A program made the translations under genes and the position numbers. Shown here piece after piece: positions 5,030 to 18,719 of a stretch of DNA of 31,058 nt. The stretch spans positions 1-31,058 of the forward strand of contig CALKWZ010000080.1 of NCBI GenBank assembly GCA_938003985.1. Reading direction: 5' to 3'. Origin of the DNA: an uncultured Verrucomicrobiota bacterium. GTDB taxonomy: Bacteria > Verrucomicrobiota > Kiritimatiellia > CAIQIC01 > Lenti-01. Each line of letters begins with the position of its first letter. Positions within the stretch are counted from its first letter, which is position 1. The notes under the pieces were generated by a model. It was given only the letters and a program-made list of their open reading frames with translations. It was not told the DNA's origin and ran no database searches.

Positions 5030-5057
5030 TTGACATATATACACATATGTGTATATG
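5030..5057 (+). promoter_or_regulatory. Sigma70-like promoter with embedded perfect 20-bp operator palindrome upstream of arsR1
   Basis: TTGACA (5030-5035), 16-nt spacer, TATATG (5052-5057); perfect palindrome ATATACACATATGTGTATAT at 5037-5056 covers spacer and -10. Confidence 0.75.
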
Positions 5058-5065
5058 TATACGGC

Positions 5066-5374
5066 ATGAATACCGCCCAAGCCAAGGCCCGCGCCGATCT
5101 CCTGAAAGCCCTCGCCCATCCCACCCGCGTCCTCATGCTGGACGCGCTGGGCCACGGCGATTGCTGCGTCAACGACCTCCGCAACCTCGCTGCGACGAGC
5201 CAGCCGACCATTTCCCGCCATTTGGAGAAACTCAAGAAAGTCGGGATCGTCACCGAGCGGCGCGCCGGCAAGCGGGTCATCCACCACCTCGCCTGCCCCT
5301 GCATGCTGCAAGCCCTGGGGTGCACCGTCGAAGCGCTGAAATCCGTCAAGCAGCGCCAAGCCAGCACCATTTAA
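5066..5374 (+). CDS. arsR: ArsR/SmtB-family metalloregulator (arsR1)
   Basis: MNTAQAKARADLLKALAHPTRVLMLDALGHGDCCVNDLRNLAATSQPTISRHLEKLKKVGIVTERRAGKRVIHHLACPCMLQALGC; winged-helix ArsR signature with CC and CPC cysteine motifs. Confidence 0.85.
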   Translation: MNTAQAKARADLLKALAHPTRVLMLDALGHGDCCVNDLRNLAATSQPTISRHLEKLKKVGIVTERRAGKRVIHHLACPCMLQALGCTVEALKSVKQRQASTI

Positions 5375-5383
5375 GGAACCGAC

Positions 5384-14959: not shown

Positions 14960-15046
14960 GCGACCCGCCGCCCGCGGCGGCACGCGGGGATTGACGTTTC
15001 CCCACGCTTTCCGGAGAATGGCCCCGACTTCTCCGAGAGGCCCCCC

Positions 15047-16804
15047 ATGGATGGTTCCACGCTATTCTTTTTGAGTTTCACCGTGCTCGGTGGCCTCGCC
15101 CTGTTCATCCTGGGCATGGGCATCATGTCCGACGGCCTGCGCGTCGCGGCCGGCCCCGGCCTGCGCACGCTGCTGGCGAAAGCGACGGCCAACCGGTTCG
15201 CGGGCCTGGCCCTGGGCACCCTGCTCGGTTTTCTGGTCCACTCTTCCGCCGCTTCGGTCATGCTGGTCGGCTTTCTCAACGCCGGCCTCATGAGCCTGGC
15301 GCAGGCCGTCGCCCCGATGCTCGGCACCAATCTGGGCACGTCGCTGTCGATGCAGCTCGTGTCGTTCCGCCTGACCGACTACGCCTACGTCGGCATCGTC
15401 GCGGGCCTCGTGTTCCAGATGGCCGTGCCCAATCCGCGCGCCAAATCCATCGGCCGCGCCCTGATCGGGTTCGGCCTGCTGTTCCTCGGCATGAAAACCA
15501 TGAGCGCGGCCATCGCTCCCCACCGCGACCTGCTCCGCCAATACCTCGTCGCCATCGATGGCCAGACCCTCTCCGGCCGCCTGCTGGGCGTGGGGCTCGC
15601 CTTCGCGCTCACCGCCGTCATCCAGAGCAGCGGCGCCACCATCGGCATGGCCTTCGCGCTGGCCGACGCCGGGGTGTTCGATTCGCTGTGGCAGACGTAC
15701 CCGGTCGTCATCGGCGCCCAGATCGGCACCTGCGCCACCGCGCTGCTGGGTTCCATCGGCACCGGCATCGATGCCCGCCGCGCCGCCGCCGGCAACCTGC
15801 TCACCAACGTCGTCAACGCGGGGCTCTCCATCGCGCTGGCGCCGCTGTGGGTGCCGCTGTTCGGGCGCACCTCGCCCGATCTCGTGCGGCAGACCGCCAA
15901 CGCCCACACGCTCCTCATGCTCCAGAACTGCGCGGTCTTCCTGCCCATCGTGCCCCTGTACGCCGTTCTCCTCCGCAAGCTGCTCCCCTCCCGCCTGCCG
16001 CCGCCCGAACCCTCGCATCTCCGGCCCGACCTGCTCGATTTCCCCGAACAGGCCATCGCCGCCTGTCTGCGCGAGCTCCGGCGCGTCGCCCGGCTCTGCC
16101 GGCACAGCCTGCGGCTGGCCGGCGAAACCCTCCTCTTCGCCCATTCCGCCAAGGACGTCCAGACCATCCGGCTCAACGAGCAGGCCGTCAACGAAATCAA
16201 GCTGGCCATGAAGGACTACCTCGCCGGCCTGGCCCGCCGCCATCTGTCCAAGCGCCAGGCCATCCTGGTCCAACACGTCGACCGCTGCATGAGCGACCTC
16301 GAACGCGTCGGCGACCACGTCGAGACCCTCTGCAACGTCTCCCTCCGCCGCCGCCGGGTCCCCGCCGCCATCGTCGATCGGCTTTCCTTCAGCATTTTTT
16401 TCCAGCTCTACGAAGCCTCCCTGCACGTCCTCAAACTGATCGTCCAATCCTTCGATCCCGACCGCGACGACATTCCCGTCGTCGCCGACCAGATCCTTTT
16501 CGCCCGCGACGACTACGTCCAGGCCAGCCAGGCCGTGCGCATCCATTTCAACGAGCAGGTGTCCAACCGATCCATGACCTCGACCGCCGGCATCTTCTTC
16601 GCCGAATACGTCTCCGCCCTCGACCGCATCGTCCGCCATTGCCGGAACATCGCCCTTTCCGAACAGCAGCCGCAGTTCTGGATCAAGCGGTCCAAGCTCG
16701 AAAAACGCATGGATCTGGCTCCGGAACCGGTGTCTCCCCCGTTGGTCGATCCGCAGGATTTCCAGGAACGCCTGCGGCGCGCCGAAACCGACGATCCGGA
16801 ATGA
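15047..16804 (+). CDS. Na/Pi cotransporter with C-terminal PhoU-like domain (paralog 2)
   Basis: LSFTVLGGLALFILGMGIMSDGLRVAAGPGLRTLLAKATANRFAGLALGTLLGFLVHSSAASVMLVGFLNAGLMSLAQAVAPMLGTNLGTSL...MSDLERVGDHVETLCNVS; closely parallels the upstream gene. Confidence 0.9.
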   Translation: MDGSTLFFLSFTVLGGLALFILGMGIMSDGLRVAAGPGLRTLLAKATANRFAGLALGTLLGFLVHSSAASVMLVGFLNAGLMSLAQAVAPMLGTNLGTSLSMQLVSFRLTDYAYVGIVAGLVFQMAVPNPRAKSIGRALIGFGLLFLGMKTMSAAIAPHRDLLRQYLVAIDGQTLSGRLLGVGLAFALTAVIQSSGATIGMAFALADAGVFDSLWQTYPVVIGAQIGTCATALLGSIGTGIDARRAAAGNLLTNVVNAGLSIALAPLWVPLFGRTSPDLVRQTANAHTLLMLQNCAVFLPIVPLYAVLLRKLLPSRLPPPEPSHLRPDLLDFPEQAIAACLRELRRVARLCRHSLRLAGETLLFAHSAKDVQTIRLNEQAVNEIKLAMKDYLAGLARRHLSKRQAILVQHVDRCMSDLERVGDHVETLCNVSLRRRRVPAAIVDRLSFSIFFQLYEASLHVLKLIVQSFDPDRDDIPVVADQILFARDDYVQASQAVRIHFNEQVSNRSMTSTAGIFFAEYVSALDRIVRHCRNIALSEQQPQFWIKRSKLEKRMDLAPEPVSPPLVDPQDFQERLRRAETDDPE

Positions 16805-16883
16805 CTTGCTTTCCGCGTTCCGGCGGGAGCATATTCATAGGTTTGCCGCCGGAGGTGTTTCCCGGCGGCGAGGAGTTGTTGCC

Positions 16884-18719
16884 GTGAATCCATCCGAAAT
16901 CGTCCTGCTGGTGTTCCAGGTCCTCGGGGGCCTGAGCCTCTTCATCTACGGCATGCACGTCATGACCGGCAGCCTGCGCGCGGCCGCCGGCGCCTCCCTG
17001 CGCTCCATCCTGGCCCGCGCCACCCGCAGCCGGCCCCAAGGCGCGGTCTTCGGCACGACCGTCGGCTTCCTCGCCCACTCCGGCGCGGCCGTCGCGATGC
17101 TCGCCGGCTTCATCAACGCGGGCGTCATGACCCTCGAACAGTCCATCGCCCCCGTCTTCGGCGCCAACATCGGCACGTCCCTGTCCATGCAGCTCGTGTC
17201 GTTCCACATCGCCGACTACTGCTGGGCCGCCATCGGCATCGGCTTCCTGCTCGACGCCCTGATCCCCTCCGACCGCTGGCGCAAGCTCGGCGGGGCCCTC
17301 ATCGGCTTCGGCCTGCTGTTCCTCGGCATGGAAACCATTTCCGCCGGCATCGCCCCCCACAAGGACGCCCTCGCCCCCTTCCTCTCCCACATCCGCGGCG
17401 ACGTCTGGACCTGGCGCCTCCTCGGCGTCGGCATCTCGGCGCTGCTCACTGCCCTGATCACCTCCTCCGGCGCGATGATCGGTCTCTGCTTCGCCCTCGT
17501 CACCGCCGGCGTCTTCACGGAGTTCCACCAGGTCGCCGTCGTCGTGCTCGGCGCGCATATCGGCACCTGCATCGTGCCCATCATGGCCGCCGTTCCCATG
17601 CGCATCGGCGCGTGGCGCGCCGCCATTGCCCACCTGCTGTTCAACGTCGCCAACGTCGCCCTCGCCTTGCTCGCCTGGCCCCTCGTCGTCTGGGCCTGCG
17701 AAGCGTCCTCCCCCGGCAACCTCCTCCGGCAGGCCGCCAATCTGCACACCTTCGCCATGGTCGCGGCCACCCTCCTCCTCCTGCCGCTCACCGGCCTCTT
17801 CACCCGCCTCGTGCGCCTGCTGACCCCTTCCAAGGAGCCCATCCCCGCCCCGTCCTTCCTCGAGGACAAACTGATCGCCAAGCCCGAACAGGCCCTCGCC
17901 GCCGTCATCCGCGAACTGCGCCGCATGGCCGAAATCTGCGTCGACAGCATGATGCTCAACGGCGAACTCATCCTGAACCCCACCCGCAAGACCTTCCGCC
18001 GGCTCCTGTCCAACGAAGACGTCATCAACGAAGTCCGCCAGTCCATGGGCGATTACTTCAACCAGCTCACGAAACACTACCTCTCCCGCCGCCAAACCCT
18101 CTTCCTGCAGCACCTCGACCGCTGCATGAAGGACATCGAGCGCATCGGCGACCACCTCACCCACATCGGCGAAACCTCCTGCGAGCGCTTCAAGGTGACC
18201 GAGGCCATCCTGCCCGAAGACCTGTTCCGCACCTGGTTCACGCTCTTCTGCACCGCCAAGCGCGTCGTCGCCCTCATGGCGCGGTCCTTCGACCCCGACC
18301 ACAACGCCTTCCAGAACGTCGCCCTCGAAATCCTTCGCGCGCGCGACGTCTACATGATCCAGTCCATGGACGCCAAGGCCGAGTTCGCCGGCGCCGTCCG
18401 CGAAAAGCGCATCACTCCCATCGGCGGCTATTACCTCTCCCGCTACATCGAGGATCTCGACCGCCTGGTCCGCCGCGCCAAGTCCATCGCCTTCGCCGAA
18501 CGCCAGCCCGACTTCTGGGTCAAGGCCGCCAAGCTCGAAAAAGAGGCCAAGGAAGCCCCCGTCTACGCCGCCCAGACCCGCGTCGATCCCCGCGCATATC
18601 TCGAACTGCTCCGCAAGGAGTCCCCCTTCGACGATTCCGACCTGGCCGACGCCGACCACCCGGGCGTTCCCGCCGAATCCCCCCACCAGGCCCCGCCCGA
18701 CGAACCGCCGCAGGCCTGA
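16884..18719 (+). CDS. Na/Pi cotransporter with C-terminal PhoU-like domain (paralog 3), GTG start; alternative ATG 16806
   Basis: VNPSEIVLLVFQVLGGLSLFIYGMHVMTGSLRAAAGASLRSILARATRSRPQGAVFGTTVGFLAHSGAAVAMLAGFINAGVM...FGANIGTSLSMQL...MKDIERIGDHLTHIGETS. Confidence 0.88.
   Translation: MNPSEIVLLVFQVLGGLSLFIYGMHVMTGSLRAAAGASLRSILARATRSRPQGAVFGTTVGFLAHSGAAVAMLAGFINAGVMTLEQSIAPVFGANIGTSLSMQLVSFHIADYCWAAIGIGFLLDALIPSDRWRKLGGALIGFGLLFLGMETISAGIAPHKDALAPFLSHIRGDVWTWRLLGVGISALLTALITSSGAMIGLCFALVTAGVFTEFHQVAVVVLGAHIGTCIVPIMAAVPMRIGAWRAAIAHLLFNVANVALALLAWPLVVWACEASSPGNLLRQAANLHTFAMVAATLLLLPLTGLFTRLVRLLTPSKEPIPAPSFLEDKLIAKPEQALAAVIRELRRMAEICVDSMMLNGELILNPTRKTFRRLLSNEDVINEVRQSMGDYFNQLTKHYLSRRQTLFLQHLDRCMKDIERIGDHLTHIGETSCERFKVTEAILPEDLFRTWFTLFCTAKRVVALMARSFDPDHNAFQNVALEILRARDVYMIQSMDAKAEFAGAVREKRITPIGGYYLSRYIEDLDRLVRRAKSIAFAERQPDFWVKAAKLEKEAKEAPVYAAQTRVDPRAYLELLRKESPFDDSDLADADHPGVPAESPHQAPPDEPPQA

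Follow-up and report, generated by a model that had tools for sequence, protein, structure and literature searches.

Does a block of genes that joins arsenic resistance, mercury methylation and phosphate transport move between genomes as a mobile island, or is it part of the resident chromosome? The question is raised by a contig of an uncultured Verrucomicrobiota bacterium of the class Kiritimatiellia (NCBI GenBank assembly GCA_938003985.1, contig CALKWZ010000080.1, positions 1 to 31,058; this whole stretch of 31,058 nucleotides is here called the window), in which 14 co-oriented plus-strand genes lie within positions 5030-18719 (Table 1). An earlier examination of the letters alone (the sequence-only reading) had listed two ArsR regulators, a permease, a thiol relay, HgcAB, ArsC, ACR3 and phosphate transporters, and had proposed a functional module, maybe mobile as a block. 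We find every one of these genes on the plus strand and where that examination had placed it. However, the 13.7-kb block is a resident locus of its lineage, and the idea of a mobile As/Hg/Pi island should be dropped. In our reading, to which we give a probability of roughly three in four, the block is a chromosomal, lineage-conserved arsenic-resistance supercluster of three adjacent units, whose content is shuffled by the gain and loss of small cassettes and by recombination.

Genes were chosen by third-position GC (GC3), the contig having a G+C content of about 0.65, and then identified by Pfam and NCBIfam searches. In four independent contigs from four other samples the gene order is unchanged, with 97.6-99.1% identity over 7064-13832, and the placement of hgcAB within an ars cluster is therefore not a chimeric assembly or other artefact. 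The nearest homologues of HgcA are found in metagenome-assembled genomes of Verrucomicrobia, Kiritimatiellia and Lentisphaerota, and the 90%-identity cluster to which the PIF1 helicase of the contig belongs has a member annotated as Kiritimatiellia bacterium.

A resident locus rather than a mobile island

Close relatives of the locus were collected by a metagenome scan with the PstS-Na/Pi (sodium/phosphate) protein, by exact-cluster look-ups, and from the contigs of ACR3 and PMK homologues; all comparison loci are numbered with the prefix L. In L132, the order is VWA on the minus strand, followed by ArsR1-ArsP-CMD-CDF-Trx3-Usp-DGC-TrxTM-CcdA-ArsF-ArsR'-ArsC-RAYT-ACR3-PstSNaPi (RAYT being a REP-associated tyrosine transposase), and L131 continues with NaPi2-NaPi3 and then MVD-PMK-MK on the minus strand; neither locus contains hgcAB. 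Their proteins are 83-96% identical to those of the window, with the exception of ArsR' (46%), and their DNA matches window positions 3500-6747, 6763-7006, 7016-9060, 10553-10951 and 11055-22177 at 82-93% identity (blastn). The sole stretch of the window without a counterpart in L131/L132 is 9060-10553, comprising the rest of arsR2, hgcA and hgcB. Stretches specific to L131/L132 hold CMD and CDF, Usp and DGC, and the transposase gene, the last at a position occupied by arsM in other relatives and by nothing in the window.

Three further loci (L135-L137) have the same left flank and 98% DNA identity from ACR3 through the Na/Pi genes, and lack 7581-10550, from the end of the gene for the membrane thioredoxin (TrxTM) through hgcB. 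Across window positions 205-17839, identity to L135/L136, a near-conspecific variant, forms a mosaic: it is 89% in the left flank, falls to 81% over arsR1 to trx, is 88% for arsC and reaches 98% between ACR3 and the Na/Pi genes. This points to recombination breakpoints within the cluster. The right junction is kept in L127-L129, which read MK-PMK-MVD followed by NaPi3-NaPi2-PstS/NaPi-ACR3-arsM. The pattern recurs in a different chromosomal context, with PGM, OmpH and LpxD as the flank, where L134 carries CcdA-HgcA-HgcB-CMD-ArsC-ACR3 and L133 is without hgcAB. In this comparison with relatives, the check proposed along with the sequence-only reading and the decisive one, the block is thus not present or absent as a unit among close relatives, and no empty site was seen; L131/L132, L135-L137 and L127-L129 differ from the window only by internal cassettes.

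The proposal of a functional module holds in that its genes recur jointly in more than ten related loci and in that hgcAB lies inside ars operons in many phyla, whereas the suggestion of a mobile block is contradicted by hgcAB-free relatives with the same site and the same junctions. Nor are the genes scattered in relatives, such that their adjacency here might be due to chance: the ars, thiol-relay and Na/Pi genes recur together.

It might still be argued that the whole of 5030-18719 is a genomic island, integrated and movable as a unit. The 14 genes are of resistance type and share one orientation, and the housekeeping-like genes on both sides point the other way, as had been noticed for the flanks from the sequence alone. 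Domain searches place a TSP3-repeat protein, redoxin, RsmE, an outer membrane protein and VWA to the left, and three genes of the mevalonate pathway (MVD, PMK, MK) to the right, all on the minus strand. Moreover, related ars clusters of more distant relatives occur in other chromosomal contexts (L133/L134, L084, L090), and hgcAB is known for a patchy distribution that resembles horizontal gene transfer (PMC7438021). However, family searches found no integrase, recombinase or transposase domain in any open reading frame (ORF) of the window, a tRNA scan found no tRNA or tmRNA in the window, an Rfam scan was likewise without an island signature, and a repeat search found no pair of direct repeats bracketing 5030 and 18719. 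Composition is unbroken: GC content is 0.62-0.69 inside and 0.62-0.74 outside, tetranucleotide correlations are 0.91-0.98 throughout, and GC3 is 0.75-0.92 inside against 0.77-0.92 in correctly framed flank genes. Codon usage also matches the flanks, a conclusion that rests on tetranucleotides and on genes other than Redoxin and SBPperm, which were misframed and slightly contaminate the "left" and "right" groups. Furthermore, the junctions between VWA and arsR1 and between NaPi3 and MVD are kept in close relatives that lack hgcAB, and where relatives differ, they do so by internal cassettes of 0.4-3 kb, a pattern in L131/L132 and L135-L137 that contradicts movement as a unit. We consider an island very improbable.

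Proposed exchange of an arsR2-hgcA-hgcB cassette

The variable unit is arsR2-hgcA-hgcB, a stretch of 1.7 kb at 8840-10541 (in L135, the variable part runs from TrxTM through hgcB). The promoter/operator in front of it sits in 8754-8839, the sole sizeable gap of the ars/hgc part, and is kept both in hgcAB-free L131 and in hgcAB-bearing L081 and L082 (alignment A1). The window and L131 share this element up to the arsR start codon and then diverge. ArsR2 is 74% and 66% identical to the ArsR that precedes hgcA in L081 and L082, respectively, as compared with 46% to the L131 ArsR at the same site, and the cassette therefore travels with its own regulator. At the other end, the arsC start codon is the exact point from which all variants are homologous again (alignment A2). 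Directly 5' of it, the window has hgcB and L131 has arsR'; L134 has a CMD gene there, L135 what remains of a thioredoxin, and L081 the promoter/operator for a second time.

The conserved promoter/operator and the 5' end of arsC can act as recombination anchors for the cassette. We envisage that the 1.7-kb cassette would be exchanged by recombination between these two, with the cluster remaining at a fixed chromosomal site. In L081, the second promoter/operator of the ArsR2 type (TTGACA...TATATTTCGTCATATAACGAA) lies at about 7700-7775. The arsR-hgcAB-dsbD genes of L081 are thus bracketed by two copies of the element, which offers a possible route to cassette loss via recombination.

Association of hgcAB with arsenic genes

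Links between hgcAB and arsenic genes extend well beyond this lineage. We examined 80 hgcA loci listed from a contig scan with HgcA, drawn from different species and phyla and at most 56% identical to the HgcA of the window. ArsR, ArsC or ACR3 occurs in the available flank of 49 of these 80 loci; ArsC or ACR3 was found in 36, on the same strand and within 2.5 kb in 33, and a tblastn-detectable ArsR-like gene in 25. An ars operon is expected in about 1% of random 20-kb windows, as a rough estimate that was not computed, and the co-location of hgcA with ars genes is far above chance. The hgcA loci of Bacteroidales have a fixed order of arsC-hgcA-hgcB-acr3, and four loci of the Planctomycetes-Verrucomicrobia-Chlamydiae group (L003, L005, L007, L012) also have the set of ArsP, Trx3, Trx and CcdA.

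The arsenic-hgcAB link has already been published, including for Kiritimatiellae, and the window is a further example of it. In two earlier papers, acr3, arsC, arsM and arsR are described as flanking hgcAB in diverse genomes (McDaniel et al. 2020, mSystems, PMC7438021, Fig. 6), and an arsR-like regulator together with acr3 and arsC is reported to occur most commonly beside the hgcA of Kiritimatiellae (Peterson et al. 2025, ES&T, PMC11984097, Fig. 4c). The latter paper links this arrangement to lower transcription of hgcA, and reports an hgcA-carrying group of the window's lineage as the most abundant in one eutrophic lake. Their loci resemble ours in having hgcAB directly beside arsR, arsC and acr3, in the window's own lineage in the case of Peterson et al.; beyond them, the window adds the boundaries of the cassette, hgcAB-free relatives with identical flanks and a Lys-to-Glu change in the HgcA cap helix. 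The passages of these papers drawn on here make no mention of an Na/Pi trio beside ars-hgcAB.

A more distant parallel is found in Pseudodesulfovibrio mercurii (P. mercurii) ND132, where an upstream ArsR controls hgcAB and is co-transcribed with it, expression responding to As(III) and As(V) (bioRxiv 10.1101/2022.10.17.512643), and where an hgcAB knockout is more sensitive to As(V) (bioRxiv 10.1101/2022.10.17.512643, Gionfriddo et al. 2022/2023). Both genomes have a gene for an ArsR-family repressor directly 5' of hgcA. However, in ND132 no ars structural genes lie beside hgcAB and the metal site of the regulator is described as atypical (10.1101/2022.10.17.512643), whereas in the window the ELCVCQL motif of ArsR2 is canonical and the string of genes continues past hgcB with arsC and acr3.

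The HgcA cap helix

The cap helix of HgcA in the window reads NVWCAAGEGNF, in which a Glu at codon 102 (9490-9492) replaces the signature Lys. The protein consequently fails the pattern N[VI]WC[AS][AGS]GK, as the Cys and the first seven positions fit and the final Lys is a Glu. In the consensus protocol of Capo et al. 2022 (PMC10087281), N[V/I]WC[A/S][A/G/S]GK is the 'high stringency' criterion for hgcA, and by this protocol the gene of the window fails the high-stringency definition and passes the moderate one. The Lys is present in 107 of the 114 best homologues with a recognised motif, and in all 79 motif-bearing loci of the 80-species set. The Glu variant is confined to one sub-lineage of the Kiritimatiellia (the window, L134, L082 and the sequences P0002-4, P0006, P0008 and P0009). 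Within it, the switch between Lys and Glu seemingly occurred more than once, because L082, which has Glu, is nearest to L081, which has Lys, the two being the closest pair overall. A text search of the literature for NVWCAAGE gave no paper. As a charge-compensating change within HgcA, residue 121 (E/D in most Lys-type and Q in Glu-type proteins) was a weak candidate and is not relied on.

The missing high-stringency motif (PMC10087281) could be taken to indicate that hgcAB is here a decaying, non-functional remnant. However, both ORFs are intact and of full length, the NF040863 score is well over its cut-off, and none of the key residues is lost, neither the catalytic Cys nor, in HgcB, the CIECGA motif and the C-terminal CC pairs. 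Moreover, the ratio of nonsynonymous to synonymous substitution rates (dN/dS) within the Glu lineage is 0.18-0.25 for HgcA and 0.09-0.22 for HgcB, equal to that in comparisons of the Glu with the Lys form; the former value implies that hgcA is still under constraint (purifying selection). The gene is furthermore 97-99% conserved in four other samples. Of the alternatives considered here, we judge a remnant to be the least credible.

The variant has a practical consequence, in that a strict motif filter applied in metagenome surveys would drop it. Counts of Kiritimatiellia hgcA may thus be too low, or the exclusion may be right, should the variant prove inactive.

The Na/Pi-PhoU trio

The third unit comprises three carriers, each with two PF02690 stretches and PF01895 (NF037997 136-187 bits against a cut-off of 50; TIGR00704 under its cut-off). 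They arose by tandem triplication: the period is about 1837 nt, segments share 61-87% nucleotide identity, and the trio is kept in relatives. Protein identity between each copy and its orthologue in relatives is 72-98%, whereas paralogues share about 65-71% at the DNA level; each copy is thus closer to its orthologue, and the trio is old and maintained. The fusion of a PstS-like domain to the first carrier is rare, occurring in full length in 1 of the best 150 representative 50%-identity clusters (from 1.84 billion proteins); in L128 and L129, two separate genes stand in place of the fusion, for a PstS protein of 224 aa and a carrier of 590 aa.

The trio is linked to ars genes in L083-L086, L090, L098, L099, L127-L133 and L136, and not in L088, L100 or L134. 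No Na/Pi genes occur in any of the 80 cross-phylum hgcA loci (0/80), and the Na/Pi-ars linkage is specific to the window's lineage. The trio probably serves selective phosphate handling under arsenate stress. The PstS-type domain on the first carrier argues for the uptake direction. All three transporters share the architecture of YjbB of E. coli/Salmonella (an Na/Pi cotransporter with PhoU domains), which is reported, in the portion of PMC7980370 that cites Motomura 2011, to promote phosphate export; the window differs from that system in that its copies are three, tandem and diverged, and in that one of them bears a PstS-type periplasmic binding domain as a fusion.

A serious competing explanation, which we rate at somewhat less than even odds, is that the trio is an unrelated phosphate-homeostasis operon, a neighbour by inherited synteny, and that the real module concerns arsenic and mercury only. 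Its promoter element remains constant behind ACR3, behind CcdA and, in L088, behind an unrelated gene, and a motif search of this promoter region found no ArsR-type operator. Spacing between the Na/Pi genes is 80-130 nt, compared with 4-nt overlaps in the ars/hgc part, the trio stands without ars genes in L088 and L100 and is missing from the hgcA loci of other lineages, and in L086 it adjoins a pstSCAB-phoU operon. However, its adjacency to ACR3 or CcdA holds in more than ten related loci despite reshuffling and different flanks (L084, L090, L133), in L101 a PstS-like gene lies directly 3' of ACR3, and the co-location of phosphate uptake with ars genes is a known theme (PMC3834237).

The theme is described by Li et al. 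2013 (PMC3834237), whose arsenic islands contain pst/pho/phn genes and, by the authors' conclusion, were assembled piecemeal rather than evolving as whole units. The co-location of ars with phosphate acquisition genes is common to those islands and to the window, and piecemeal assembly fits the window. However, the islands of Li et al. are built round the arsenite oxidase genes aioBA, occur in aerobes and carry Pst ABC systems, whereas the window comes from an anaerobic lineage and its carriers are of the YjbB-like Na/Pi-PhoU secondary type. Domain searches found no molybdopterin or Rieske oxidase genes (aioBA) in the window, which thus falls outside their definition.

Proposed function

From gene identities, order and coupling, conserved promoters, and presence or absence in relatives, all of which are observed directly, we infer arsenic induction, transport direction and HgcAB activity as follows. 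The locus would be expressed as three units, the first (5030-8753) controlled by ArsR1, the second (8787-12250) by ArsR2 and the third (12300-18719), the Na/Pi trio, from a separate promoter, with read-through possible. Arsenate entering the cell would be reduced by ArsC, presumably coupled to thioredoxin; the resulting As(III) would bind the ELCVCQL site of ArsR2 and lift repression, with ArsR1 probably responding likewise, and ACR3 would export As(III). Unit 1 would supply the permease together with a periplasmic reductant relay from CcdA to the membrane thioredoxin and on to ArsF, in addition to the ArsE-like thioredoxin. HgcAB, a corrinoid methyltransferase with its ferredoxin, would be made as a passenger of the arsenic-inducible transcript.

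Alternatively, HgcAB of this lineage may act on arsenic and not on mercury, through corrinoid-dependent methyl transfer to As(III) or a thiol-bound arsenical, with the Lys-to-Glu change as a specialisation. The translational coupling of hgcAB between arsR2 and arsC would fit such a role, as would the recurrence of ars-embedded hgcAB across phyla, the restriction of the Glu variant to this ars-embedded lineage under purifying selection, and the As(V) sensitivity of the ND132 knockout (bioRxiv 10.1101/2022.10.17.512643). In addition, the window is without the arsM that L081, L138 and L127-L129 have at the corresponding position. However, no HgcAB is known from biochemistry to methylate arsenic, most ars-embedded hgcA keep the Lys, the Lys and Glu forms interchange between very close relatives in the same context (L081 and L082), and L081 has both hgcAB and arsM. 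An anticorrelation of arsM with hgcAB was also considered and is rejected, given that the two occur together in L081 and are both missing from L131, L133 and L135. We regard a primary action on arsenic as unlikely.

A bolder form of this idea would make the Glu-variant arsR2-hgcAB an As(III)-induced corrinoid methyl-transfer module for arsenic or a thiol-arsenic adduct, and the PstS-Na/Pi-PhoU protein a new binding-protein-dependent secondary transporter. It is a long shot. Were it true, the tethered PstS carrier would serve selective phosphate uptake, or the expulsion of arsenate, when the cell is under arsenic stress, and the methylation of mercury would be incidental to a system that handles arsenic.

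Returning to the supercluster of three units with exchangeable cassettes, several points weigh against it. A transposase gene does lie inside the L131/L132 cluster, between arsC and acr3 (L131 9216-10004; NF047646 86.5 bits against a cut-off of 80), and the flanks of distant relatives differ (PGM/OmpH/LpxD in L133/L134, AcrB/CDF in L084), so that the cluster has moved or been rearranged over longer times. With a promoter of its own and no ArsR-type operator, the Na/Pi trio may have no role in arsenic defence, and the association is incomplete in both directions, the trio occurring without ars neighbours in L088 and L100 and ars-hgcAB without the trio in L134. The near-invariant cap-helix Lys is absent, which makes mercury-methylating activity uncertain as judged from the residues. 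Lastly, co-transcription and arsenic induction are argued from gene overlaps, the ArsR motif and a distant model organism.

For the open question of what hgcAB natively does, arsenic is a current lead in the literature and not one introduced by the window. What the locus provides is a natural comparison with and without hgcAB, in near-identical backgrounds set apart by a single arsR-hgcAB cassette of 1.7 kb, which lies behind an arsenic-type operator and is translationally coupled to arsC. Consequently, the arsenic induction of hgcAB and its effect on arsenic tolerance and speciation are directly testable.

Composition of the three units

Table 1 Promoter elements and genes of the three units, with positions in the window and the matches or motifs that identify them (bits are given against the model cut-off where available)
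Feature	Position	Strand	Evidence
Unit 1 promoter/operator	5030-5061	+	TTGACA at 5030-5035; perfect 20-bp palindrome ATATACACATATGTGTATAT at 5037-5056; just 5' of arsR1
ArsR1, ArsR/SmtB repressor, DCC pair in helix 3, C-terminal cysteines	5066-5374	+	HTH_5 1.6e-12; NF033788 79.6 bits vs cut-off 55
ArsP_1-family permease, 458 aa, CSC motif	5384-6760	+	PF03773 226.8 bits
Small thioredoxin-fold protein, CPKC site, MTH895/ArsE family (Thioredoxin_3)	6775-7008	+	PF13192 90.5 bits; TIGR00412 101.1 vs 62
Membrane-anchored thioredoxin (TrxTM), CIPC site, predicted to face the periplasm	7016-7612	+	PF00085 48.7 bits; N-terminal hydrophobic anchor in translation
CcdA/DsbD_TM thiol-disulfide electron transporter	7609-8310	+	PF02683 44.9 bits; 4-nt overlap with each neighbour
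ArsF-family protein, signal peptide, RCPTC motif	8307-8753	+	NF040494 88.9 bits vs 60; no Pfam match
Unit 2 promoter/operator	8787-8830	+	TTGACG, 17 nt, TATATT; overlapping dyad TTCGCCACATAACGAA at 8815-8830; promoter scan 10/12 positions
ArsR2, ArsR repressor, ELCVCQL motif	8840-9214	+	HTH_5 60.4 bits; NF033788 91.1 bits; first gene of variable cassette
HgcA, 345 aa, GTG start, corrinoid-binding domain and 4-5 C-terminal hydrophobic helices	9187-10224	+	NF040863 394.6 bits vs 275
HgcB, 2x[4Fe-4S] ferredoxin, CIECGA, C-terminal CC pairs (ETCCGERSCCG)	10221-10541	+	NF040864 116.4 bits vs 99
ArsC, arsenate reductase of the low-molecular-weight protein tyrosine phosphatase (LMW-PTP) type, probably thioredoxin-coupled, CX5R (CTGNSCRS), C81/C88 pair (CDHAHESCP)	10538-10969	+	PF01451 77.1 bits
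ACR3 arsenite efflux permease, 397 aa by gene callers	11057-12250	+	TIGR00832 367.1 bits vs 282.8
Promoter-like element of the Na/Pi unit	12300-12345	+	Invariant TTGACA at 12310, conserved downstream box (alignment A3)
PstS-Na/Pi-PhoU fusion, 859 aa: signal peptide, PstS-like domain, Na/Pi membrane domain, PhoU domains	12380-14959	+	PF12849, PF02690, PF01895; TIGR02136, NF037997
Na/Pi-PhoU paralogue 2, YjbB-like architecture	15047-16804	+	PF02690 158.8 bits, PhoU; NF037997 144 bits
Na/Pi-PhoU paralogue 3, last gene of block	16884-18719	+	PF02690 149.3 bits, PhoU

In unit 1, the palindrome ATATACACATATGTGTATAT occurs once in the window, against an expectation of 0, and a TTGACA with an AT-rich palindrome 5' of arsR1 is kept in eight related loci. 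The genes from arsR1 to arsF follow one another at distances of 7-14 nt or with 4-nt overlaps, and the orthologues of TrxTM in relatives are called at 198-204 aa. No NCBIfam ArsP model matched the ArsP_1 permease, the sole matches being the metal effluxers SaoE and SO_0444, below their cut-offs.

Within NCBIfam, ArsE is named as thioredoxin-like, ArsF as a nitroreductase subunit and ArsG as an efflux permease. As in the ArsEFG system of Shewanella, matches to the ArsE (101 vs 62) and ArsF (88.9 vs 60) families adjoin a membrane protein of the DsbD_TM type. However, the system is incomplete here, in that the CcdA/DsbD_TM protein scores 51.8 bits with the ArsG model, far under its cut-off of 200, and there is no sign of nitro-aromatic arsenical chemistry. 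Another counterpart is 'operon C' of ND132 (ArsR5-ArsP-ArsE-DGC), with which unit 1 shares a core of ArsR, an ArsP_1 permease and a PF13192 thioredoxin; an ArsR-ArsP-ArsE-DGC operon of ND132 is arsenic-induced in RNA-seq (bioRxiv 10.1101/2022.10.17.512643). Unit 1 differs from operon C in lacking DGC and in adding the membrane thioredoxin, CcdA/DsbD_TM and the ArsF-family protein. A PF08859 DGC gene is present, as in operon C, in the close relatives L131, L134 and L139. In L139 (1442-1828) and L140 (93-479), whose contigs are 97.7% identical downstream, this extra gene lies between Trx3 and the membrane thioredoxin. It is another small cassette polymorphism, matching the ND132 ArsR-ArsP-ArsE-DGC operon.

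In unit 2, the genes from arsR2 through arsC overlap by 4-28 nt, hgcB overlapping hgcA and arsC by 4 nt each, and ACR3 follows after a gap of 69-87 nt. The ELCVCQL of ArsR2 is presumably the classical As(III)-site motif of R773-type ArsR proteins (a predicted site). The match of HgcA spans positions 2-323 of the 325 in the NF040863 profile, P0001 is 100% identical to it, and its C-terminal hydrophobic segments lie at about 191-220, 223-254, 256-274 and 282-307, with a weaker one at 322-342 (Kyte-Doolittle; the number of helices is approximate). The best NCBIfam model for ArsC is TIGR02691, at 153 bits and thus under the equivalog cut-off of 174, so that its placement in the thioredoxin-coupled pI258 type is tentative, with the CX5R loop and the C81/C88 pair both in place. 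A terminator scan did no better on this sequence than on shuffled sequence (11 vs 10.7). At the end of unit 3, a GC-rich hairpin can be read from the sequence at about 18764-18784, after paralogue 3 and before the convergent MVD gene.

Other features of the contig

The left end of the contig holds a truncated minus-strand ORF (1-1239) rich in bacterial TSP3 (thrombospondin type 3) calcium-binding repeats, which accounts for the periodic DNA repeats of 144 nt and 66 nt found there. To the right of the block, four tandem 31-nt repeats (22335-22483), each with a palindrome TTTTACGT-N3-ACGTAAAA, lie in a gap that has a DciA-like ORF (21778-22302) on one side and a large SBP_bac_1 gene on the other; the repeats resemble a row of regulator binding sites at intervals of three helical turns. 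A BrnT/BrnA toxin-antitoxin pair at 25558-26053 is also present in L127 and absent from the same place in L128, where RsgA abuts the SBP gene; the DNA is otherwise collinear, and the pair is thus a minor accessory insertion. At 24298-24391 and 27849-27961 there are two long inverted repeats, imperfect and composed of short units. One consists of three copies of AGGAGTC facing their complement across a 22-nt spacer, and the other of ATCATAATCGTAATCCTAATCTTAATC facing its complement across a 59-nt spacer.

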